Part shown: one piece after another, positions 9,685-52,114 of the stretch
How positions within the stretch are numbered: position 1 is the stretch's first letter
Layout: each line of letters starts with the position of its first letter
From: Escherichia phage Ecwhy_1
Reading direction: 5' to 3' (one strand)
Sequence record: MH791411.1
Length of the DNA stretch: 64,000 nt
Notes under the pieces: model-generated
The model's database searches: none
Told to the model about the DNA's origin: nothing
The model's input: the letters and a program-made list of their open reading frames with translations, nothing else
Program-made: the position numbers and the translations under genes

Positions 9685-11013
9685 TTAACCAAGAGAGCGT
9701 GCTTTACGTACTAGGTCAGAGTACTTCATAACGAAGTCTTTAAACGCTGGTACATCTTTAATCGTAATCGCTACTTTATGAAGCGTGATGGTACGAATCG
9801 CCAGTACTGCCAGTTCTGCTTGAGTTGCAGAGAAGTTATGGTCTAGGAAGGTGATGAAGTTGTTGCACAGCTTACCCCAATCTTCCACTGGTAGACGTTG
9901 TTCTTGCTTCTCATTGTAGAGGTCGATAATTTTGTAAACCAGATTCAGAGTGATGAAGTAGTTCGCGGAAATATCAAGCGAAGCATCAATCTCTTTAATC
10001 TCACCCTGTAGGATGGACATGGTATCTGGTAGTTTAGCTACGTTATCAACATACTCGATGTATTCAGTTGCTACGCCTTCACCAACACGACCTGCAATCA
10101 TCGCACGGAACACTTCTTTATCAATGTTCTTAACTTTCTTCAGATCTTCGTAGCGTGCTACTGCTTCCCATGAACGTGGAGAAGTACCACCACAGTGAGA
10201 AGGATCTTGTGGGCTAAGGGTGTTGAAGTGTTTAGCACCAGTGTTGTTGATGAACGCTACAGTTGCTGGGTTCAAACGCTTACCAATCGCATAATCGTTA
10301 ATCCAATCTTGATGATAAGGAATCATTTCGATGTGGGTCATACGGTCACGCAGTGGTGTAGCTAGAGAGAACGTTACACCGCCATCAGTTTCACGGTTAC
10401 CTGCTGCGAGAATCAGTGCAGTCTTAGGTAGCTTCATCTCACCAACACAACGGTCGAGGATTAGCTGATAAGACGCTGCCTGTACAATCGGCATTGCAGA
10501 GTTGATTTCGTCAAACAGAATAACACCTTTCCAATCTGGAGACAGTTTCAGTACTTTAGGTGCTGCCCACACAACTGCTGTTTCAGCGATGTAATCTTGT
10601 GCACTAGCCAGTTCAGATTCAATCAGTTGCTTACCATCCATATCAAGGAACACTTTCTCTGGAACTGGGATACCGCGAAGGTCACTTGGTTCAATCTGAG
10701 ACAAACGGAAATCGATAAAGTTAGTGTCTTGGTCGATTAGTTTGGCTTCAAACGCTGCCAGTTCACGGCGAAGTTGATCAGCATTTTCAGTATCAGCTTC
10801 GATTTGTTGTTTCATGAACTCAATTTTTGCCACGTTATCTTTACGCAGTGGGTAGTTCTCATCAGCGTATTGACGTGCGATAGCAGATTTACCGATACCA
10901 GGGCTACCCCAAATCATCAGGCTATCTTGAATCATGTCAGCCAGTGCCATTGCTTCTTTAGCTTTCTTAGGAGTCAGTTTTACGTTCAGGATATCGTTGT
11001 TTTGAGTAGACAT
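9685..11013 (-). CDS. MoxR/CobS-like AAA+ ATPase
   Basis: 442 aa; Walker A GSPGIGKS, Walker B ILFDEIN, and overall MoxR/CobS-like arrangement; AAGGAAA RBS. Confidence 0.8.
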   Translation of the reverse strand: MSTQNNDILNVKLTPKKAKEAMALADMIQDSLMIWGSPGIGKSAIARQYADENYPLRKDNVAKIEFMKQQIEADTENADQLRRELAAFEAKLIDQDTNFIDFRLSQIEPSDLRGIPVPEKVFLDMDGKQLIESELASAQDYIAETAVVWAAPKVLKLSPDWKGVILFDEINSAMPIVQAASYQLILDRCVGEMKLPKTALILAAGNRETDGGVTFSLATPLRDRMTHIEMIPYHQDWINDYAIGKRLNPATVAFINNTGAKHFNTLSPQDPSHCGGTSPRSWEAVARYEDLKKVKNIDKEVFRAMIAGRVGEGVATEYIEYVDNVAKLPDTMSILQGEIKEIDASLDISANYFITLNLVYKIIDLYNEKQEQRLPVEDWGKLCNNFITFLDHNFSATQAELAVLAIRTITLHKVAITIKDVPAFKDFVMKYSDLVRKARSLG

Positions 11014-11079
11014 GTATATTTTCCTTTTGTTGGATAAAATCGTTTAGGTTTCTATTATAGCCAATCCGTGGGCAAAAGT

Positions 11080-11122
11080 AAAGGAACTGTGTTAAAAGAA
11101 TTTTTAACTTATCAGTTCCTTT
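11080..11122 (-). promoter_or_regulatory. 10-bp-stem hairpin in the 5' leader of the ATPase gene
   Basis: Inverted repeat aaaggaactg (11080-11089) / cagttccttt (11113-11122), 23-nt loop, between the promoters and the ATG at 11013. Confidence 0.5.
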
Positions 11123-11179
11123 GTTACTTCATGAATCATCCGTGTATTTAAAAAGGCATTTCTCTTTGCCGTCTTGATG

Positions 11180-11212
11180 TGGTCATTATATCACATCGTT
11201 CAGGCTTGTCAA
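11180..11212 (-). promoter_or_regulatory. sigma70-type promoter P1 (consensus -35/-10, extended -10, A-rich UP-like tract)
   Basis: Minus strand reads TTGACA (plus 11207-11212), 16-nt spacer, TGaTATAAT (plus 11185-11193); A-rich tract upstream of -35. Confidence 0.55.
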
Positions 11213-11271
11213 CAACTTTTTTATTTCTTTTTCAATCTCACATCTTGTGATTTTGAAAACTTGCTTCGTGG

Positions 11272-11304
11272 TGGTCATTATAACACATCATTCGGCGTTG
11301 TCAA
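11272..11304 (-). promoter_or_regulatory. sigma70-type promoter P2 (tandem copy of P1)
   Basis: Minus strand reads TTGACA (plus 11299-11304), 16-nt spacer, TGtTATAAT (plus 11277-11285); part of a ~60-bp direct repeat with P1. Confidence 0.55.
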
Positions 11305-11329
11305 CATCTTTTTTTCTTTATTTTCGAAG

Positions 11330-11707
11330 CTACATGTGCATCGAAAATAACATTCTAAAATCATCACCACACAATGTTAACTCTGTAACTATCATTGCGT
11401 CCGAGAGGTATATGTACTGCCCTTCTACATAGTAGGGTGAAGTACATATCCTATCAAGCGATGTAAAGATTATAGAACTTTTGAACTCTCTTTGCAAGGG
11501 GATTTTTGTAAATTCGTAAAGAATGTTTTCTTTACAAATTGTATATCCAAACTTGCTAAGTCTTAAACCACCGCCAGTTCTGAAATTTTCAAAAATTGAC
11601 ATCAGAAGCATACGGTCTGTTAATTCAGCGTCTGATCCATGTACTTCTCTAACTTTTAAAAGTACATCGTTTTGAAATTCAGTACTGTTGTGTGGTTCAG
11701 GAATCAT
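11330..11707 (-). CDS. hypothetical protein
   Basis: 125-aa ORF ending just upstream of the tandem promoters. Confidence 0.45.
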   Translation of the reverse strand: MIPEPHNSTEFQNDVLLKVREVHGSDAELTDRMLLMSIFENFRTGGGLRLSKFGYTICKENILYEFTKIPLQREFKSSIIFTSLDRICTSPYYVEGQYIYLSDAMIVTELTLCGDDFRMLFSMHM

Positions 11708-11710
11708 AAA

Positions 11711-12103
11711 TTACATCCCCACGAAACCCTGTCTTGCTGCATATGAAGGAGCATCTTTAACTTTATAGTCTTGGACACCATCTTTACCAATTTTCGGACC
11801 CATATCTTTGGTTCCGAAGCAGCAATCAGTGGATTCATCAACTTCTTCAGTACTTTCATCATTATATCGAACATCCGATAAAATGTCACACGCTTTTTGA
11901 AGCTTTTCTACGATTTCTTTTTGATCTTCACCTGATTTAACCTTATCCACAATGTGGATAAGGCATTCGGTGATATCTTTAAGTAAATCGGTGGCAACAG
12001 CATCAGAAGGAGTCTCAACTGCAAAACTTTCTTCTTCAGTAGATTCTTCACTAGAAGTGATTTCATCTAATGCTTCAACCAATTCACGATAATTATATCC
12101 CAT
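11711..12103 (-). CDS. hypothetical acidic protein
   Basis: 130 aa, Glu/Asp-rich; ATG at 12103 abuts the stop of the upstream gene. Confidence 0.5.
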   Translation of the reverse strand: MGYNYRELVEALDEITSSEESTEEESFAVETPSDAVATDLLKDITECLIHIVDKVKSGEDQKEIVEKLQKACDILSDVRYNDESTEEVDESTDCCFGTKDMGPKIGKDGVQDYKVKDAPSYAARQGFVGM

Positions 12104-41911: not shown

Positions 41912-43150
41912 TTATTTTTTACTGTACCATTGCATTTCACGGATATCTAATAGTACCTTCGTAGCCAACTTTATGTTTGGTCGCTTCGGTAGATGGGTCT
42001 TATGATACGCCACATTTCGGATGTAGTCAACCTTTTCGTTGAAATAATCCATAACTTCTTGATACAACCACTTCCCGTTACGAATGTCCATCAACATAGC
42101 AGCATCCGGTCGGTGAACTTGGATGATACCAGTTTCAAGTGCTTCCTGTGCTGTATTCAGCAGCCTGACTGTATGCATTGCGTGTTTACAATCATAACCG
42201 TGGTGTGATTCAAGAATAGCACGTTTGGCATTACGATTCTGCTTCCATTTGTGATAACTCTTACGGTTCTCACTATTTTCTTTGTATTCTTTTTCATTGA
42301 ATTTTACAATGAGTTCAGGACGAACTTTCAATTCTTCTGTAGTACGTTCTTTGTTGAAGTAACGTAGTGAACCATCAGCATTCACTGTACTTTCATTCGG
42401 GTTGATAATTACCCCAAAGATGTTTTCACCGTAATGGATTAGTTCATATCCAGAATTGTAATTCAATAAATTGAAATCACGATCTAATACTTTATCAGTA
42501 CTATAATTATGTACTAAACGTACAAAATGATATTGTTTCAATGCTTGTGTTGAAACTAATTGTAATGAAGTATCACGCATGTATTTTTCAAAATCAATTT
42601 TTGTAGCATTGAATGGGTGAAGATTGGATTTATTCAAACGGTCAACCAAATACTGCGGAAATGTATCATACATCCATGAAAGTACTTCGTCAACTGGATG
42701 TTCTTCTAAAATTTCATTTAGTTTACGTTCAGCAATTCGTTCCTTATCGAGCCAGCCGTGGTGATTAGACATACGCTTAACCTGATTGTATGCATATCCA
42801 CTGTATGAGTGTGCAATCTTTGAACTCAATAATTGCTGATTGAATGAGCGTAGATAGTCATAGATTTCAGTACTTTCTACGATGTGTTCCGGTTTAACCC
42901 ATAGTGATTCAAGAATGTTTGGGTTAGCTTCAGTATACAGACTTAAGTACTGATTGATTTCATAAAATTTAGTATCTTCTTCAGAAGTATCTGAAACTTC
43001 CTTAACATTAAAAAAAGGAGTTAGGATATATTCTTTGTTTGCAAGGAAGATACCACGATAATCTGTATCACTTTCTGGTGTGCTTGTGCCATACGCCTGT
43101 GAACCAGCTAAGTGTTTCACAATAGTTTGTTCTAGAAAATTGTTTTTCAT
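41912..43150 (-). CDS. Pol-beta-superfamily nucleotidyltransferase
   Basis: 412 aa; N-terminal GSQAYGTSTPESDTDYRGIF fits the GS-x(9-13)-DxD nucleotidyltransferase signature. Substrate unknown. Confidence 0.6.
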   Translation of the reverse strand: MKNNFLEQTIVKHLAGSQAYGTSTPESDTDYRGIFLANKEYILTPFFNVKEVSDTSEEDTKFYEINQYLSLYTEANPNILESLWVKPEHIVESTEIYDYLRSFNQQLLSSKIAHSYSGYAYNQVKRMSNHHGWLDKERIAERKLNEILEEHPVDEVLSWMYDTFPQYLVDRLNKSNLHPFNATKIDFEKYMRDTSLQLVSTQALKQYHFVRLVHNYSTDKVLDRDFNLLNYNSGYELIHYGENIFGVIINPNESTVNADGSLRYFNKERTTEELKVRPELIVKFNEKEYKENSENRKSYHKWKQNRNAKRAILESHHGYDCKHAMHTVRLLNTAQEALETGIIQVHRPDAAMLMDIRNGKWLYQEVMDYFNEKVDYIRNVAYHKTHLPKRPNIKLATKVLLDIREMQWYSKK

Positions 43151-44584: not shown

Positions 44585-45151
44585 TTAGTATAAATCAGTA
44601 ATGTCTTTGTATGCATTAATCTGTTTTTGTTGTAATGAAAGTTCATTGAGTTTAGTTACCATTTTATCTACACCAACACGTATATAGAAAATAATAAATG
44701 AATCTAACTTGCCTAGAGTAATTCTTGAACTGTAAGTTGAAAGTTTTCTTGCATAAACATAAATTTCTTCTTCACTTGGTAAACGTTTCTCAATCAGCAA
44801 GTTTTCCACACCATTCGGCTCATAATCAATCTCGAACTCTACGCCTATCACAGTATCTTGAATGATATCAGTATATGAACCACCGAAAAAAAACTCTCTT
44901 GGTTTGGTTCTCCAACGAGGACTAAATGGGTCAGATGCGTATTCTTTTACAAATTTGTAAAAGGACATTTTACTGAGCATATACTTCATCTCAATTAGTG
45001 CTTTGCGGTCATCATCAGTTTTAAACTCTGCTTTGAGCGATGGACTTTTACACAGTAACTTAACTAAATTGTTGTACATCTTTAATGTACGTTGGTCTTT
45101 CATTTCTTGGATTTTGTGACGCTTTGGTGGTGGTAGTAAAGATTTGACCAT
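44585..45151 (-). CDS. hypothetical protein, tandem paralogue 1 of 3
   Basis: 188 aa; TDDDRKALIEMKYMLSK motif. Confidence 0.5.
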   Translation of the reverse strand: MVKSLLPPPKRHKIQEMKDQRTLKMYNNLVKLLCKSPSLKAEFKTDDDRKALIEMKYMLSKMSFYKFVKEYASDPFSPRWRTKPREFFFGGSYTDIIQDTVIGVEFEIDYEPNGVENLLIEKRLPSEEEIYVYARKLSTYSSRITLGKLDSFIIFYIRVGVDKMVTKLNELSLQQKQINAYKDITDLY

Positions 45152-45184
45152 AATTTCCTCCTGTATTTTCTAGCATTATACACA

Positions 45185-45214
45185 TAAAAGAAAAGCCCGT
45201 CAATAGACGAGCTT
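45185..45214 (-). terminator. rho-independent terminator after a fibre gene
   Basis: Hairpin aagcccgtc-aata-gacgagctt (45193-45214, one mismatch); on the minus strand followed by ttttctttt. Confidence 0.6.
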
Positions 45215-45221
45215 AAAATTT

Positions 45222-47951
45222 TTAATGCCAACGTGTACCAGAGCTTGAAGGAACACCAGTACTTGCGGGGATAGCAGAACCACGCTTGGTCGTACTAGGT
45301 CTGTATGTCAAGAATCGGGTTACCTTTTCAGTATCAATTGACGTAATACTCGTACTTCCAGTAACAATATCACCAACATATACGTTTGTCAATGTCTCAT
45401 CAAGAAGAGTTGTACTGATAACGTATGCCGCTTTTCTTGTGTTACGGTTCATTTGAATGTAAAGATAAAAAGTACTGTTAGCTGGGTTAGTTTTAATAGT
45501 ACTTAATTCTATGGTTTGAATCGCCAATCTATCAAACATACCACCAAGGAATACCGGAACTTCACGGGTGAAGTACACAGTGAAACCTTCAGCAACATCT
45601 TGTGAAACTACTACGATTTTATCTTGTACAGTTCCTGAACCATCAATCAACCCATCCATCTGTGCTGATGTTGTCCCAAAGAGACTAAACACTGCTTTAG
45701 TTTGATAATCTGAATCTTGAAGATGATAGTATCCAAATCCAACACCTGGTATAACTCCGTGCTGGAATGCATTGCCATTATCTATGTAGCTGGATGACAT
45801 AAATCGGTTAGATGTAATCAAACCATTCACTGTTTTAGCAATCATCAATTTGAATTGAGCATTACCAGGTTGTGAAAACTGATGAACTGCATCAACACCA
45901 ATATAACCAAAACCAGAATACTTAGCAACAGTTAGACCAGTACAGCGTTTCATATAGGCTTCGGTTACAATACCTGTTACAGAATTAAGTGTTTCGTATC
46001 TAGAACTCACCATAGACGCAGAACTAATATTGGTTCCTGAAACCGTGACATCAACTTCAGAATATATTGCATAACCTTGGTTATTTCCTAAGTTATATGC
46101 AGAAACCACCGCAATAGATTTTGAGAAAGAACTATCTGGTACATAATATAAAGCAATTTTACCAGAAAATGCTCCTACTATTCCAATATTAGCAAGTATT
46201 TCTTGTTTTAATGTTTCCAGAACATTATCACCAATTGTATAAGAACCATCAAATTCTAAAGTATCTGGGTTAAACAAACCACCACTTGTTTTGTATACAC
46301 CTTCAATGAATGATGTCCCATAACATTTAACTGAACCGTCAGTATCAATTAGTGAAATCATACCTGTATATTTGAAATCATCACCAAGACGAGTTCGGTT
46401 AGCTTGTGGTGCAAAACCATTAAGTGTTGTATTGTTTTGTACTGAATTGAACTGGAAGGTTGGATCAGTACCAATTTCAGAAAATACTGTATTGTTATAA
46501 CCATATGACTCATCTTCATATGTTCCAGAACATGCTAACAGTACTTTACGTTTATCAATAAAACGTGTTCCTAAAAGGTTTTCACCTACTGCACTACCAT
46601 ATGTTGGGGCAACGTTTACAAATTTAGAATTGTTCGCTTTGCGAGTACTGGCAACCCAACTATCATATGGTGTTCCTGTTACGTTATAAACCTGAATACC
46701 ATAGGTTTCAGAAGAACTCCAACGAGCACGTGTGCTGAATACTAAACCGTCATAGGTTTGGCATATAGAACCAACGTTACCTAATTGTGGAACACCTAAC
46801 TGTGTACCCATGAAGTTATTCATCTCAATGGCAAATGGGTTTGTTAGTGTGAATCCATCAACATCATTATATTCCGCTGCTATTGGTGCTCTACTACTTC
46901 CATCAATTGATAATGATTTAGAGTTGATAGTATAAACAAAACTAAAACCACTAGCATAAACAGTACTAATATATAGATTTGATACTAAACGGTTAGTTGG
47001 GAATAATGTAATTCTAATCTTTGATAAATCTGGACTTACGTTTGCTTGTATATTATAATCTGTATAATCTGAATATTCAACTCGTGTAACTGGTGAAGTG
47101 CATTCAAATAATGAATCACTACTAGTTCCAACTGAATATAATCTTTCATAAATTTTCAAATTATTAGCACTTGTGTAGTTAACACTTCTTAAGGTTTGAC
47201 CAGAAAAACCAGTAACCTTAGCAAAAGTACTCATAGTACCATCTTTAATACTACTTGTATTAACAGTATATAATGTTAAAGCCAAACCATAGTTTGCTAT
47301 AGTAGTGTCTTTGCACCACACAAATACTTTATCATTAACGATATGTGCATACAATGGTTTATCTGTACCAAATGATGTAGCAGCGATAGAAGCGTGAATA
47401 TGTGCAACTTCGTTAAATGTACCATTTGTTAAAGTGAAAATATAATTACTTGCACTAGATAGGCTAACTAGTAATTCATAACCATTCGTTCCGATGAACT
47501 GTTTAACATTTTCAGTACTTGGAAGAATTCTAGGATGATATTTTGATGTAGTACTGATAACACTACTTTGTGTTAGTGCATCAATATTACGCAAATCACG
47601 AATGAATGCATAGTAATATCCTTCAGTACTACCATTTGTACCAGCACGTAATACCACACCAGTACCATCATCTTCGACTATTGTTGGTTGCATACGGTAT
47701 ACATCTGAAAGCGACGTTGCCCCTTCGTATGAACCATTAACGTTTAATGGTAGATAATCCATTTCCCCTATACGGGAGATTGGTAACATATCAAGTATTT
47801 TTTGAACTTCTGATCTTTTATAAATTGGATAGTCAACAATACCTGTATTTGCGTCTGGTGCTGTACCATTAAAAGTACGCATAGCGTACTTTCCACCAAT
47901 TGCCAAATTTCCAAGTATAGCAGCACTACCAATGATGCGTTTGGATGACAT
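45222..47951 (-). CDS. tail fibre / receptor-binding protein, paralogue 1
   Basis: 909 aa; conserved N-terminal (LPISRIGEMDYLP) and C-terminal (TYRPSTTKRGSAIPASTG ... GTRWH) modules shared with 47968..48555 and 48568..51264; Asn/Ser/Thr/Gly-rich centre. Confidence 0.7.
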   Translation of the reverse strand: MSSKRIIGSAAILGNLAIGGKYAMRTFNGTAPDANTGIVDYPIYKRSEVQKILDMLPISRIGEMDYLPLNVNGSYEGATSLSDVYRMQPTIVEDDGTGVVLRAGTNGSTEGYYYAFIRDLRNIDALTQSSVISTTSKYHPRILPSTENVKQFIGTNGYELLVSLSSASNYIFTLTNGTFNEVAHIHASIAATSFGTDKPLYAHIVNDKVFVWCKDTTIANYGLALTLYTVNTSSIKDGTMSTFAKVTGFSGQTLRSVNYTSANNLKIYERLYSVGTSSDSLFECTSPVTRVEYSDYTDYNIQANVSPDLSKIRITLFPTNRLVSNLYISTVYASGFSFVYTINSKSLSIDGSSRAPIAAEYNDVDGFTLTNPFAIEMNNFMGTQLGVPQLGNVGSICQTYDGLVFSTRARWSSSETYGIQVYNVTGTPYDSWVASTRKANNSKFVNVAPTYGSAVGENLLGTRFIDKRKVLLACSGTYEDESYGYNNTVFSEIGTDPTFQFNSVQNNTTLNGFAPQANRTRLGDDFKYTGMISLIDTDGSVKCYGTSFIEGVYKTSGGLFNPDTLEFDGSYTIGDNVLETLKQEILANIGIVGAFSGKIALYYVPDSSFSKSIAVVSAYNLGNNQGYAIYSEVDVTVSGTNISSASMVSSRYETLNSVTGIVTEAYMKRCTGLTVAKYSGFGYIGVDAVHQFSQPGNAQFKLMIAKTVNGLITSNRFMSSSYIDNGNAFQHGVIPGVGFGYYHLQDSDYQTKAVFSLFGTTSAQMDGLIDGSGTVQDKIVVVSQDVAEGFTVYFTREVPVFLGGMFDRLAIQTIELSTIKTNPANSTFYLYIQMNRNTRKAAYVISTTLLDETLTNVYVGDIVTGSTSITSIDTEKVTRFLTYRPSTTKRGSAIPASTGVPSSSGTRWH

Positions 47952-47967
47952 ATTCTTTTTCCTTTAA

Positions 47968-48555
47968 TTACCAGCCTAATGTACCAGTTTGTGTTGGATT
48001 TCCAGTACTGACTGGGAAAGATGAACCTTTTTGTGTTGTACTTGGTCTGTATGTATTGAATCGTGATACGCGTTCAATGTTGATAGCAGTAATACCAGAA
48101 GTTCCAACGGTAATAGTCCCGATGAACATTATAATCTGTGATTCTTGTAATTGTGAAGTTGAGATTCTATAAATTGGCTCTCCCAGTACTAAAGTAGCGT
48201 ATACATATTGTGTTTGTGTGCCTGATGCCACTGTTGGTGCTGTCACTGCAACAACAGGGTAATTATAAAGATAGCCACCGATGAATGCAGGTATCTCTCG
48301 GTTAAAACGTAATGAATAACCGCTTGATGTAATTGACAAACTAGATACATCATAAAGTTCACCATATTGTGATAATGGTAAACCGTTAACAATAGAATCA
48401 ACTTCATCTTTTGTTAAGAGGGGGAATGTACATTCCCCATTTGCGTCTGTTCGATACGATACGTCATTAATATCACTAATAGATAGTCCAGTGTTTTTAT
48501 TCTGGACTACGATTTGTGACATAGCTTCGATATCGGATCTTATAATATATGCCAT
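47968..48555 (-). CDS. short fibre-family protein (N- and C-terminal modules only)
   Basis: 195 aa; LPLSQYGELY at the N-terminus and FNTYRPSTTQKGSSFPVSTGNPTQTGTLGW at the C-terminus match the two long fibre genes; no central domain. Confidence 0.6.
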   Translation of the reverse strand: MAYIIRSDIEAMSQIVVQNKNTGLSISDINDVSYRTDANGECTFPLLTKDEVDSIVNGLPLSQYGELYDVSSLSITSSGYSLRFNREIPAFIGGYLYNYPVVAVTAPTVASGTQTQYVYATLVLGEPIYRISTSQLQESQIIMFIGTITVGTSGITAINIERVSRFNTYRPSTTQKGSSFPVSTGNPTQTGTLGW

Positions 48556-48567
48556 AAGATTAATCCT

Positions 48568-51264
48568 TTACCAATTGATTGTTCCTGTTTGTGACGGTAG
48601 ACCATAACTAACTGGGAATGAAGAACCAGCAGCTTCAAGAGACGCACCGAAAATATCCAATCTTGAACGTTTTTGTATGTTAACATTTGATATTTGTAGT
48701 GAGTTTGTTTGTATAGTACCTATCCAGAAAATATTATATGCTGTAGAACCAGTTTCTGAAATAACATCAGTTGTTATTACATATTTTGCATTACCTTGTT
48801 CCATTTTAACATATACATGAAATAATGTGTTTGCTGGATTAGCCTTAACTGTAGTTAAGTTTATACTAGTAATCGGTAATGTAAATGCTTTACCAGAAAG
48901 AATTACTGGAGTTTCTTCTGTGAAGTACACAATAAAACCTTGAGCAACGTCTTGTGAAACTACGTTAATCGGTGCACCTTGAGCAGTCCAGTTATTATAA
49001 TCAGCAATTGTAGTACCACATTTTTGGAAAGTCATTTTGTTTACATAGTCTATTGCTTGGAAATAACCAAAACCAATACCAGGTAAAGCTGCTGGTTGAA
49101 TACCTTGCTCATAACTTGCATGTGAACCACTGATAATAAAACTATCAAATTGTGCAGTTGCTTTTGTTACATATGCTCTGAATTGGTGTGTGTTTGTATT
49201 ACCAATAGTTGGGTGAGATAATGGGTCAGAACCACCTATGAAGTAGAAAGAACCACCATCATATATTGTTAAACCAACAGAAGACGAAGCAAAACTACCA
49301 TTACCATTTGGTGTAAAGTTACTTCCGTAAACGTTTTCTAGTACTAAACGCTTGAAGGTAATTGTAGTGATATTACCTGAACGTGTATTCACATTCACTT
49401 CAGCAATTCTAATATAGTTCTGATATGTATTTGTAACTGTACTTAGCATTACGAATGCAGGTATATCAGTTTGTTGTGGAACAAACAATGTCATATCTTT
49501 ATAAGCAGCGGAAGATAAGTTCCAGTCGCTTAGTACTTTGGCGTATTCAGCATTTCTGAAATTATCAAGTACAGATTGAGTAACACTAATGATACCAGTT
49601 CCGTTCATATTTTTATCATATGATAGTGATTGGGAATATCTCTGACCTACCATGAATATCCCACCATTTGTAGTAACATTATTACCACTAATGGAACTAA
49701 TAAAAACTCTGTTGTTCGTGTTATCTGTCACATTAGCACGTTCTGTTGTTGGCTCATAACCTTGTATGGTTCCACGTGATAAAGAATTAAACGTAAAGTT
49801 AGGAGTACTTTTATGAACTGCATAAGATGGACGGAATGCACCAGAACCAGTTGAACGAGAATACTGTTTAGTACTGTTCCCTGGAAGCAATTCTACGCCG
49901 TTAATAAAAGAACCAACTGCTGAACCAAATGAAGGACGAACTATGCCATTTCTGAAATCAGTTGAAATGTTCGCACGTACATTAATCATGCTATATATTG
50001 ATTGTGCAGTAAATTTAGCTTTCTGCATAAGCAATGGTTCTGCTAAGTTTGGACATGCAGTACAGAATACTTCACCTGTATTCAGATAATAATATGAACT
50101 GTAAATGTTTCTTGCACCGCTATGGTCATATAAAGGATCTTTGTTGAGAACGTTACCAGTAGCAACCAATGCCGAACCTGTGTTTGTAACAACAAATGGT
50201 GCAGCAAATGTACCAATATCGTTCCCATTATCCAAGTTACATTGTTTAGTACTCATGTTAAAATTGAAACTATAACTATGCTGTGGTCGGGTATTGTAGT
50301 TTGCCATAGTGAACCATGCGTCACCATTCATTCTGAATCGGAAGTTCTGCGTTCCTGGCTCCTGAGCAACATATAAATCGATAGATGTCATATAAATCCC
50401 CATACCAGCCAAATTTTGTGGTACATAGACATATGGCTTATCAGCAATATTAGTTGAGTTAACATGGTCAGTAATGATTATATTATTCTGAGCAGTATAT
50501 GTAGTATTGTAAAAAGTTTTTGTTGTCCATCCCGTGATTCGGGTAGCAGTATAAGTACCGTTTGCAATATTCAATACAACACGAACAACAACAATCTGTA
50601 GTTTGTTATTTTCATTAAGGACGTTGAATACATAAACTGAACCGTCTTCTGCCATCATAGCATACTCAATCCCACCTTCAGGTGAAATATCAGCTTGGTT
50701 CACAAAAAGACCACTATGTTGTGTATCATCCAATGTACCATTCGTTACTGATATAAACAACCCATTAGTATTGGTAGATGTGTCATTGTAACGACCTAAT
50801 AGTATTTTTGAATCAGTATTGTATAAACCAATAGCAACACGGTTTGCCCCAAAATAGCCAGGCTTATACTGACGGCTTGTATTAACAGTACGGCTCATAT
50901 CGGTAACGGATAATGCGTTCGCTAGGTAAGAATAAAATAAACCTTCAACACTACCGTTTGTACCACTACGTAATAGTACTAATGTGCCATCGTTTTCTAA
51001 AAGTATTTTGTTTCTACGTTGGGATTGGTTTTCTGATGCACCATTAAAATCACCAGATACCCCAGCAGGTAGATAGTTATGTGTACCATAATGCGAGATT
51101 GGAAGTAAACTAATTACATCAAGTAATTCTTCTTTGGAATATGTATCAATTTCCATATTACCATTAGCATCAAATACTTGATCATTGATGCCCTGTACTG
51201 TTCTTTTCCCTTTAACTGTCACATTATGAGTGACGTCTAAGCCACCATATATTTTCTTTGACAT
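48568..51264 (-). CDS. tail fibre / receptor-binding protein, paralogue 2
   Basis: 898 aa; N-terminal LLPISHYGTHNYLP, C-terminal module ending GTINW; AAGGA RBS. Confidence 0.7.
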   Translation of the reverse strand: MSKKIYGGLDVTHNVTVKGKRTVQGINDQVFDANGNMEIDTYSKEELLDVISLLPISHYGTHNYLPAGVSGDFNGASENQSQRRNKILLENDGTLVLLRSGTNGSVEGLFYSYLANALSVTDMSRTVNTSRQYKPGYFGANRVAIGLYNTDSKILLGRYNDTSTNTNGLFISVTNGTLDDTQHSGLFVNQADISPEGGIEYAMMAEDGSVYVFNVLNENNKLQIVVVRVVLNIANGTYTATRITGWTTKTFYNTTYTAQNNIIITDHVNSTNIADKPYVYVPQNLAGMGIYMTSIDLYVAQEPGTQNFRFRMNGDAWFTMANYNTRPQHSYSFNFNMSTKQCNLDNGNDIGTFAAPFVVTNTGSALVATGNVLNKDPLYDHSGARNIYSSYYYLNTGEVFCTACPNLAEPLLMQKAKFTAQSIYSMINVRANISTDFRNGIVRPSFGSAVGSFINGVELLPGNSTKQYSRSTGSGAFRPSYAVHKSTPNFTFNSLSRGTIQGYEPTTERANVTDNTNNRVFISSISGNNVTTNGGIFMVGQRYSQSLSYDKNMNGTGIISVTQSVLDNFRNAEYAKVLSDWNLSSAAYKDMTLFVPQQTDIPAFVMLSTVTNTYQNYIRIAEVNVNTRSGNITTITFKRLVLENVYGSNFTPNGNGSFASSSVGLTIYDGGSFYFIGGSDPLSHPTIGNTNTHQFRAYVTKATAQFDSFIISGSHASYEQGIQPAALPGIGFGYFQAIDYVNKMTFQKCGTTIADYNNWTAQGAPINVVSQDVAQGFIVYFTEETPVILSGKAFTLPITSINLTTVKANPANTLFHVYVKMEQGNAKYVITTDVISETGSTAYNIFWIGTIQTNSLQISNVNIQKRSRLDIFGASLEAAGSSFPVSYGLPSQTGTINW

Positions 51265-51309
51265 ACATATCCTTGTAATTTAGATATTAGTTACTGTATT
51301 TATGAATGT

Positions 51310-51334
51310 AATAAAAAAGCACCCATTGGGTGCT
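51310..51334 (-). terminator. rho-independent terminator after nrdG
   Basis: Hairpin agcaccc-att-gggtgct (51318-51334); on the minus strand followed by ttttttatt. Confidence 0.65.
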
Positions 51335-51339
51335 TGTGT

Positions 51340-51810
51340 TTAAAAGTCTTTATTTTTATATAAAATTCGTTGGTTATTTGAACCACGAAATGGTAATGTT
51401 AAATTCTTTTCTTCTGAAACAAATTTACCATCAACTAATACATCTAAGTACTGAAGAATGTCTTTAGCATGATTATTCATAATCTCTTCTAAAGTATATC
51501 CACTCCAGCACCAAATAGTTTTATTGGGATAAGTCTCTTTTACAATCTTACATAGTTCTAAAATTGTTTCTATGTTCTTTTTCATTAGAGGATCTCCACC
51601 AAGGAGGGATAATCCACTAACGTAAGGCTTACTGAGTTCAGCTAAAATTATATCAATTGTATCAGTACTGAACTCTTGTCCACTTCTATAATCCCATGCT
51701 TCTTCATTGAAGCATCCGTCACACCCATGACTGCACCCACTAACAAAAAGGGAGCATCTTACTCCCTCCCCATTAATAAGGTCGTCTTTAATTATCGTCT
51801 GGTAATTCAT
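51340..51810 (-). CDS. nrdG: anaerobic ribonucleotide reductase activating protein (radical SAM)
   Basis: 156 aa; Cx3Cx2C radical-SAM motif in SGCSHGCDGC near the N-terminus; downstream of nrdD. Confidence 0.85.
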   Translation of the reverse strand: MNYQTIIKDDLINGEGVRCSLFVSGCSHGCDGCFNEEAWDYRSGQEFSTDTIDIILAELSKPYVSGLSLLGGDPLMKKNIETILELCKIVKETYPNKTIWCWSGYTLEEIMNNHAKDILQYLDVLVDGKFVSEEKNLTLPFRGSNNQRILYKNKDF

Positions 51811-52114
51811 CTAATATTGCACTCACTATCTCAACGAGAACATCACCATGACATGATTTCGGTTTACAGAAACAGCCAAGACGTTTCCCTGCTAACTCAA
51901 GTAAATCATCAATCTGAACTTCACCGTTAGAAATACGCTCAATAATGTATTCTCTGAACTTTTCGATTGATTCTTCCCTTGTAGCAACAATGAACTCGGC
52001 TTTGGTCTGTTTATCACTGATATGGGTAAATGGGTTGCCCCATTTAGACCCACGACCGATATACACATCATACGGTTCTTTATATTTGTTAACCACAATT
52101 GGCTTTAAATCCAT
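51788..52114 (-). CDS. small conserved protein (DUF4326-like?) between nrdD and nrdG
   Basis: 108 aa; GRGSKWGNPF and a C-terminal CFCKPKSCHGD cluster; my recollection is that this matches the DUF4326 family. Confidence 0.45.
   Translation of the reverse strand: MDLKPIVVNKYKEPYDVYIGRGSKWGNPFTHISDKQTKAEFIVATREESIEKFREYIIERISNGEVQIDDLLELAGKRLGCFCKPKSCHGDVLVEIVSAILDELPDDN

Follow-up and report, generated by a model that had tools for sequence, protein, structure and literature searches.

What do three adjacent genes encode when two of them are long and the third, between them, resembles the two ends of its neighbours joined together? The question is raised by positions 45,222 to 51,264 of a 64,000-nucleotide (nt) stretch of Escherichia phage Ecwhy_1 (sequence record MH791411.1; this whole stretch is called the window below). 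The original prediction, made from the sequence letters, took the trio for fibre or receptor-binding genes whose centres had been shuffled as host-range determinants. On balance, and with somewhat more than even confidence, we read the three products as low-copy virion proteins that combine a baseplate-type anchor with an optional glycan-binding head, the short one (g243) being a headless anchor that was retained. In functional terms this places the trio in the class of phage receptor-binding or baseplate-type proteins, and a role as host-range determinants is plausible. The 6-kb trio region is 100% identical to that of Escherichia phage fEgEco12 (PP777464.1, 374.7 kb), a jumbo myophage near Asteriusvirus (121Q, PBECO4, phAPEC6) that is 76% identical in nucleotides to the PBECO4 group, and the names g242–g244 are the gene notes of the fEgEco12 record. 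The three open reading frames (ORFs; lengths in amino acids, aa) lie exactly where they were first placed:

48568–51264, minus strand: g242, paralog A, ORF of 898 aa, record label 'hypothetical protein'
47968–48555, minus strand: g243, headless paralog B, ORF of 195 aa, record label 'hypothetical protein'
45222–47951, minus strand: g244, paralog C, ORF of 909 aa, record label 'hypothetical protein'

Judged by sequence comparison, the long proteins are diverged tandem paralogs that are homologous across their full length, centres included (BLASTP of the 909-aa against the 898-aa protein: E 2e-53, 26% identity, full length). The centres, originally said to differ, are thus diverged yet related to each other. 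Residues 77–195 of the short protein match the last ~120 aa of the long pair (E 2e-22 and 4e-17; 32% identity; BLASTP with compositional adjustment), and its residues ~1–66 match the long N-termini (E 2e-4 and 2e-5). The long-family profile hidden Markov model (HMM), A3, likewise matches short proteins at positions 1–62 and 776–899 in many loci, and this two-part match confirms the early view of the short gene as the N- and C-modules fused. Full-length profile matches to PHROGs 3573 and 26864 were obtained for the long proteins (E 7e-263 for g242 with phrog_3573, and 1.6e-230) and for the short one (9.5e-84). No trio paralog besides these three was found in the window. Pfam, run on the trio and five neighbours, gave no trio match at E≤0.1, and a sequence search of the PDB with the family profile gave no chain at E≤1. 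The label 'putative membrane protein' carried by relatives in GAP32 and Agricanvirus was rejected, as no hydrophobic 19-mer exceeds 1.6 on the Kyte-Doolittle scale. Module coordinates were taken from BLAST and HMM matches; a three-way MAFFT alignment misplaced the N-module of the short protein.

g242: N-module aa 1–66; head unit D1 aa 67–443; head unit D2 aa 444–775; C-module plus tail aa 776–898 (nt 48571–48939)
g243: N-module aa 1–66 (helix 49–58, LPLSQYG 60–66); beta-sandwich ~70–165 (nt 48061–48327); tail 166–195, ending in W
g244: N-module aa 1–70; head aa 71–786; C-module plus tail aa 787–909 (nt 45225–45593); tail ...TGVPSSSGTRWH

The family map is therefore N (1–66), D1 (67–443), D2 (444–775), C (776–870) and tail, and in long forms a ~710-aa head of two propeller-like units (D1 and D2) sits between two anchor parts. 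The motifs first proposed for the two ends hold in part. LPIS-x-YG is exact in the 898-aa protein (LPISHYG), and its counterparts are LPLSQYG in the 195-aa and LPISRIG in the 909-aa protein; TYRPSTT occurs in g243 and g244 but not in g242, which has IFGASLEAAGSSFPVSYG...INW. That the ends are more conserved than the centre was borne out by an entropy profile of g242 orthologs (n=31; ends 1–120 and 750–898). In a set of 64 diverse long members, residues conserved at ≥85% are almost confined to the N-module, the start of D1 and the C-module. Compared with phAPEC6, the trio shows 72–85% identity and the flanking genes 88–96%; D1 of g244 (aa 71–450) is at 62.9%, the other parts of g244 at 79–89%.

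The family is broad. An HMM of the short form matched 497 cluster representatives at E≤1e-3 among 1.84 billion proteins (~500 clusters at 50% identity) which, together with E values down to 2e-53, marks a true family rather than a low-complexity artefact. Lengths are bimodal (~165–250 aa and ~890–1000 aa), and in nearly every member the C-module stands at the very C-terminus. The short form comprises 29 clusters of 190–202 aa that reach down to 41% identity and share 22 invariant columns, many of them in the tail (...SR..YR.S....G..FPVS.G.P...G...W), which is equally conserved in short and long forms. Members occur in Rak2-like phages (Asteriusvirus, Mimasvirus, Eneladusvirus, Salmonella Munch/7t3, Xanthomonas XaC1/XbC2) and in Chimalliviridae (Agricanvirus gp18-20; Pseudomonas EL gp114/115, adjoining a baseplate gene). 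In a census of 26 loci, the Rak2-like ones always held exactly three members, 3' of nrdG and in the order A-B-C, with lineage-specific tails (A ...YGLPSxxGxINW; B ...TGNPxQTGTIxW; C ...TGVPSxxGTRW[HKNQ]). Which members carry a head varies between loci:

CBB, GAP32, Serratia BF and Yersinia phages (L004, L005, L016–L019, L024): A long, B long, C long
Asteriusvirus and relatives (window, L012–L015, fENko-Kae01): A long, B short, C long
L022, L023: A short, B long, C long
L020, L021: A short, B long, C of 569 aa that lacks profile positions 444–764 only
L025, L026 (distant contigs): short, long and long
L007 (distant contig): long, long and short
L006 (distant contig): long, short and short
L027, L028 (distant contigs): five members, two long and three short
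L029–L032 (distant contigs): two members
Agricanvirus: 420, 1163 and 1151 aa

Whole-head deletion always joins A3 profile position ~60–66 to ~776, and the head has been lost independently, at the same boundaries, in different lineages. We compared the ends of g243 with the paralogs of CBB and Yersinia fHe-Yen9-03 (Mimasvirus/Eneladusvirus). The C-end matches CBB_148 best (111 bits, vs 94 and 50 for the other CBB paralogs), as does the N-end (score 131 vs 72–92), so g243 is the B paralog, from which ~720 residues have been lost in frame. Correspondingly, g242 is the ortholog of CBB_147 (749 bits) and g244 that of CBB_149 (520 bits). In a neighbour-joining (NJ) tree built on the final 125 residues, sequences cluster according to their place in the array, with short A forms inside clade A; the Asteriusvirus short B lies on a long branch in the C-module NJ tree. 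Relationships of this kind indicate a history of duplication, divergence and in-frame deletion rather than of exchange, and the term 'domain-shuffled' does not fit centres that are homologous among A, B and C and C-modules that group by array position. The status of pseudogene was rejected for g243, given its intact frame, constant length, 22 invariant residues across 29 clusters and detected peptides.

Three sets of relatives depart from these patterns. Gene C of L020 and L021 (IMG/VR contigs, ~10367–12073), two different metagenomic phages, has cleanly lost the second head unit in frame; loss of D2 alone, seen in gene C of these two loci only, indicates that the head consists of two separable units. 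In P0110, P0098, P0216, P0181, P0127, P0191, P0203 and Deimos-Minion gp20 (L008, 7442–10897), anchor and tail are followed by 130–300+ extra residues, an order that resembles that of siphophage receptor-binding proteins (RBPs), shoulder then head. Pfam returned nothing for eight atypically long or extended members, so that no payload domain can be named in them. Finally, in Escherichia phage CMSTMSU (MH494197.1, UNVERIFIED_ORG; L002, 6001–12019), trio and nrdD are split into many small coding sequences, two of them named 'minor tail protein'. Given that the locus is 98.5% identical to the window in nucleotide sequence, these splits look like frameshift errors of assembly and not biology.

Evidence from published mass spectrometry associates every lineage with the phage particle. 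For lineage A, phAPEC6 gp323c (the g242 ortholog) was found in virions with 4 peptides at 5.6% coverage (PMC7247149). For lineages B and C, CBB_148 and CBB_149 were positive in virions by the same technique. The short B form itself was detected in the flagellotropic Klebsiella phage fENko-Kae01 (CDS_169, 195 aa, 3 spectra), as was lineage C (CDS_170, 921 aa, 2 spectra; PMC11218385 Table S3), both below the authors' cut-off of 4 spectra. Members of all three lineages, A, B and C, have thus turned up in particles in one study or more, and in every case at low abundance. We note that the phAPEC6 record (MK817115.1; L003, 3001–6334) leaves intact orthologs of g243 and g244 unannotated, with only a 114-nt ORF annotated there; the published virion proteome could therefore not score them.

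To describe the fold of the proteins, we used AlphaFold2 (AF2) models, all of monomers. In g243, residues ~70–165 form a confident beta-sandwich core (predicted local distance difference test, pLDDT, 86–96), residues 1–66 are of low confidence with a helix at 49–58, and the tail 166–195 is unstructured. Fold matches of the short-protein model, with their scores, were as follows:

Lactococcal phage p2 RBP: 9.7
Cyanophage A-1(L) fibre: 7.7
Phage 1358 RBP: 7.6
SPP1 gp22: 7.3
TssK, three structures: 5.2–6.5
HFTV1 gp42, two structures: 6.3–6.4
phi812 baseplate protein: 5.9
Mtd: 5.0
IglD: 4.7
Anabaena contractile-injection-system baseplate protein: 3.6

The element common to these matches is the shoulder domain, and the C-module is predicted to have its make-up of two 4-stranded antiparallel sheets plus a helix. 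Shoulder domains trimerise and are clamped by a loop of Dit or TssG (PMC7291167). Since it matches RBP shoulders and has no match to Peptidase_S74 or any other Pfam family, the C-module is not an S74-type chaperone, and the processing or intramolecular-chaperone role once proposed for it falls away. The 898-aa protein is modelled as a compact all-beta globule (pLDDT 87, predicted template modelling score 0.80), and its fold matches are beta-propeller lectins, sialidases and glycoside hydrolases. A Foldseek search of this model against the PDB gave no full-length relative, only tandem or large generic propellers and, weakly, the phi11 RBP. The AF2 monomer shows no extended shaft of repetitive, coiled-coil or beta-helical type. 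Being a compact globule with propeller matches, the 898-aa protein is not a fibre as first supposed, and the long proteins are predicted to be globular and beta-propeller-rich.

The transcription signals around the genes point to a single late unit.

51317–51335, minus strand: terminator-like hairpin AAGCACCCAATGGGTGCTT plus T-run, 8 pairs of which 5 GC, directly after nrdG
51296–51303, minus strand: ATAAATAC motif (CATAAATA), T4-type late-promoter-like, 32 nt 5' of the g242 ATG
45193–45214, minus strand: terminator-like hairpin of 9 pairs, 5 GC, then a T-run, directly after the g244 stop

Gaps of 12 nt (g242/g243) and 16 nt (g243/g244) separate the genes, with an AAGGA ribosome-binding site in each, and CATAAATAC at 51296–51303 falls between the upstream hairpin and the g242 start. 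The hairpin that closes nrdG is kept 5' of gene A in phAPEC6, 121Q, CBB, fHe-Yen9-03, fENko-Kae01, L016 and L022. In all eight phages compared for the motif (fEgEco12, phAPEC6, 121Q, CBB, Yersinia fHe-Yen9-03, Klebsiella fENko-Kae01 and two metagenomic phages), the hairpin is followed after ~10–14 nt by (T/A/C)ATAAATA, ~30–40 nt before the first trio ATG. Within the window, ATAAATAC is not enriched (4 found vs 6 expected), and its conserved position is therefore the sole evidence for the motif. The CBB authors described ATAAATA before structural genes, likened it to the T4 late promoter and noted a gp55-like sigma factor (PMC5259590). The flanking terminators, the 12–16 nt gaps and the conserved hairpin plus ATAAATA suggest that the trio is co-transcribed as a unit; an ATAAATA-like putative promoter upstream and products in virions, both seen for the trio, are features of late structural genes in Rak2-like phages. 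As the surroundings are nucleotide-metabolism genes (nrdD, nrdG, thymidine kinase, dCMP deaminase, PhoH), g242–g244 would form one late operon inside an early/middle region.

Taken together, we propose that A, B and C are ancient tandem paralogs in a family of low-copy virion proteins of jumbo myophages. Their anchor would have two parts, an N-terminal ~65 aa with a helix and an LPxSxYG strand and a C-terminal ~95-aa beta-sandwich of the RBP shoulder/TssK N-domain type, its C-end completed by a conserved, intrinsically unstructured tail of ~30 aa ending in Trp. The N-module helix and C-sandwich are possibly one shoulder-type domain that is interrupted by the head. The anchor may trimerise and dock on the tail or baseplate periphery, like the shoulder domains of phage p2 and TssK; that the EL members of the family adjoin a baseplate gene was counted in favour of a baseplate-type role. 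The head would be the exposed and faster-evolving part, most likely binding and possibly cleaving a cell-surface glycan. Finally, purifying selection would have preserved g243 because the protein's anchor continues to occupy a slot of its own in the assembly.

Several observations weigh against this proposal. The virion signals are weak (2–4 peptides), and those from fENko-Kae01 are below the cut-off in a dataset with many non-structural proteins. The proteins could also sit elsewhere on the tail, on the collar or on the capsid. The N-module and tail have pLDDT <55 in the monomer models, and the shoulder-like domain is C-terminal in the trio whereas it is N-terminal in the p2 RBP and TssK. Inheritance in the family is vertical: the same three clades (A, B, C) run from E. 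coli to Pectobacterium phages, and the mosaicism typical of host-range cassettes is missing. Few head residues are invariant among the 64 long members, which speaks against a conserved enzyme site, and ligand binding stays a prediction. In addition, the trio genes of Rak2-like phages lie among nucleotide-metabolism genes and not among tail genes.

The main rival draws on the fixed trio, the tails particular to each lineage and the mixed fibre base of phiKZ. It holds that A, B and C co-assemble through their anchors, for instance as an A:B:C heterotrimer or in the manner of the phiKZ base, with g243 as an obligatory headless subunit. Loss of a head from one chain would then only lower valency. 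We regard this as a real possibility, if a doubtful one. All Rak2-like loci examined carry three members, no more and no fewer, in a fixed order; each lineage has a conserved C-terminal tail of its own; the genes with their 12–16 nt gaps would be co-transcribed; and in the sample the head is missing from A, from B or in part from C, yet never from all three. A precedent exists in the phiKZ fibre base, reported as a hetero-hexamer of three gp131 copies with the paralogs gp133, gp134 and gp135 that share an anchor region (PMC13250141), which the trio would parallel if this explanation were true. However, three is not a universal number, as other clades have two members (L029–L032) or five (L027/L028); all solved shoulder-domain proteins found are homotrimers (PMC7291167); and only some of the three proteins were detected in each mass-spectrometry study. 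A more speculative version, which we consider rather improbable, joins this idea to the interrupted domain. Here N- and C-modules would be a single shoulder anchor that tolerates a 700-residue double-propeller insertion, and A, B and C a hetero-oligomeric adhesin, conserved from Rak2-like to nucleus-forming phages, whose headcount is tuned by deleting heads chain by chain.

It is less likely that the trio encodes decoration or structural proteins with no receptor role, such as the bases or collars of the hairy whiskers (seen on sheath and capsid in phAPEC6, CBB and fEgEco12) or peripheral baseplate stabilisers. The hair-like appendages and decoration densities of phAPEC6 and CBB lack assigned proteins (PMC7247149; PMC5259590), and both the vertical evolution of the family and its location away from tail genes would suit such a role. 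But GAP32, a phage without reported whiskers (PMC5259590), also carries the trio; a compact globule, as in the AF2 model, is unlike flexible hairs ~119 nm in length; and very low peptide counts argue against a decoration present in many copies. Moreover, the anchor fold is specific to baseplate RBP/TssK proteins, and the variable part is a propeller head with lectin- or glycosidase-like folds.

We think it very unlikely that g243 acts outside the virion as an assembly factor or regulator, for example as a trimerisation template or chaperone for the long paralogs or as a competitor for docking. It is small, is encoded between its putative clients, consists of exactly their oligomerisation and docking modules, and owes its virion signal to the 3 sub-threshold spectra. 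Its long counterpart CBB_148 is nonetheless a bona fide virion protein, and the tail is conserved in short forms to the same degree as in long forms. Moreover, headless forms arose from A or from B at the same boundaries, which a structural slot explains better than repeated invention of a chaperone. Lastly, the evidence largely refutes shuffled fibre genes with interchangeable receptor-binding centres between adaptor ends, a scarcely credible explanation despite the conserved ends, the variable centre and a trio that diverges faster than its flanking genes, since A, B and C have homologous centres, no exchange is seen among orthologs, which are collinear from genus to genus, and the proteins are predicted to be non-fibrous, while its stricter variant, the short gene as a decaying remnant, conflicts with the same intact and conserved frame that spoke against a pseudogene.

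Compared with known systems, the low-copy anchor-plus-head proteins proposed here have partial likenesses. No sequence similarity links them to the p2 and 1358 RBPs, TssK or SPP1 gp22, and their host virus is a jumbo myophage, unlike those of these systems. In the p2 RBP and TssK, an N-terminal shoulder is followed by a neck and a head or membrane-complex-binding domain, whereas most sandwiches of the trio family are at the extreme C-terminus; the trio sandwich is followed by the conserved 30-aa tail, and a payload of ~710 aa is inserted upstream of it in place of a neck and head downstream. By architecture and sequence the trio thus falls outside the p2-RBP/TssK family, though docking is likely alike. 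The closest functional analogy, in our assessment, is the phiKZ gp131 family. Both gp131 with gp132-gp135 and the trio are tandem paralog families with a shared anchor and a propeller head on some members only, and the gp131 paralogs are co-assembled at the baseplate periphery (PMC13250141). In contrast to the trio, gp131 carries its propeller, of seven blades, at the C-terminus, and what the paralogs share is confined to the N-terminus. Homology to phiKZ gp131-135 or gp145/146 was rejected, as an hmmsearch with the A2 and A3 profiles against all ORFs of phiKZ 120–199 kb (gp120-gp184) gave no match. To the phi11 RBP Gp45 and phage endosialidases the likeness is that of generic propellers, with no shared stem or tower. 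CBB_147/148/149, GAP32_143-145 and phAPEC6 gp323c (PHROGs 3573, 26864 and 7449) are true orthologs or members of the family; the CBB trio is syntenic, and its authors list the three genes as paralogs. The tandem duplications that Hua et al. 2017 reported in 121Q concern a different array of >30 genes.

What was already known is the paralogy of the CBB trio and annotation of the genes as 'hypothetical' or 'structural' proteins; the fEgEco12 genome paper does not mention g242–g244. In the literature and records covered, we found no description of the anchor fold, the globular propeller head, the module map, the headless form, the late-promoter context, the breadth of the family or its repeated, boundary-precise head loss. 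Rak2-like jumbo phages (121Q, PBECO4, phAPEC6, CBB, GAP32) have been proposed for therapy, and their adsorption apparatus is largely unassigned. Three 'hypothetical' genes here gain a testable identity, as a late operon for anchor-plus-head virion proteins with a TssK/RBP-shoulder-like anchor. A large family that reaches the Chimalliviridae offers a natural experiment in repeated head loss with the anchor kept, which points to a structural slot that cannot be left empty and to heads open to engineered exchange or removal. The pattern of headless paralogs and the possible hetero-oligomeric assembly are parts worth experiment.

The neighbourhood of the operon adds some minor observations. Directly 3' of the trio are three small tandem paralogs:

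44585–45151, minus strand: small paralog of 188 aa
44057–44578, minus strand: small paralog of 173 aa
43551–44060, minus strand: small paralog of 169 aa

They belong to phrog_18641 and phrog_7868, PHROGs with no function assigned (pairwise E 3e-15 to 6e-5), and a member of their family directly follows gene C in most Rak2-like loci (Yersinia g143, L013, L015, L017, L022). They may serve the trio as accessory or assembly factors, or may simply be unrelated neighbours. A near-consensus sigma-70-like promoter (TTGACG-17-TATAAT, 11/12 matches; 45175–45203, minus strand) overlaps the terminator after g244 and precedes the first of them, which suggests a separate transcription unit with timing unlike that of the trio. 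Two other genes are conserved near the same locus in CBB and GAP32. One encodes a 412-aa RlaP-type nucleotidyltransferase (41912–43150, minus strand; PF10127, E 4.5e-17), and the other a DUF4326 protein (51788–52114, minus strand) that lies between nrdD and nrdG and overlaps nrdG by 23 nt.

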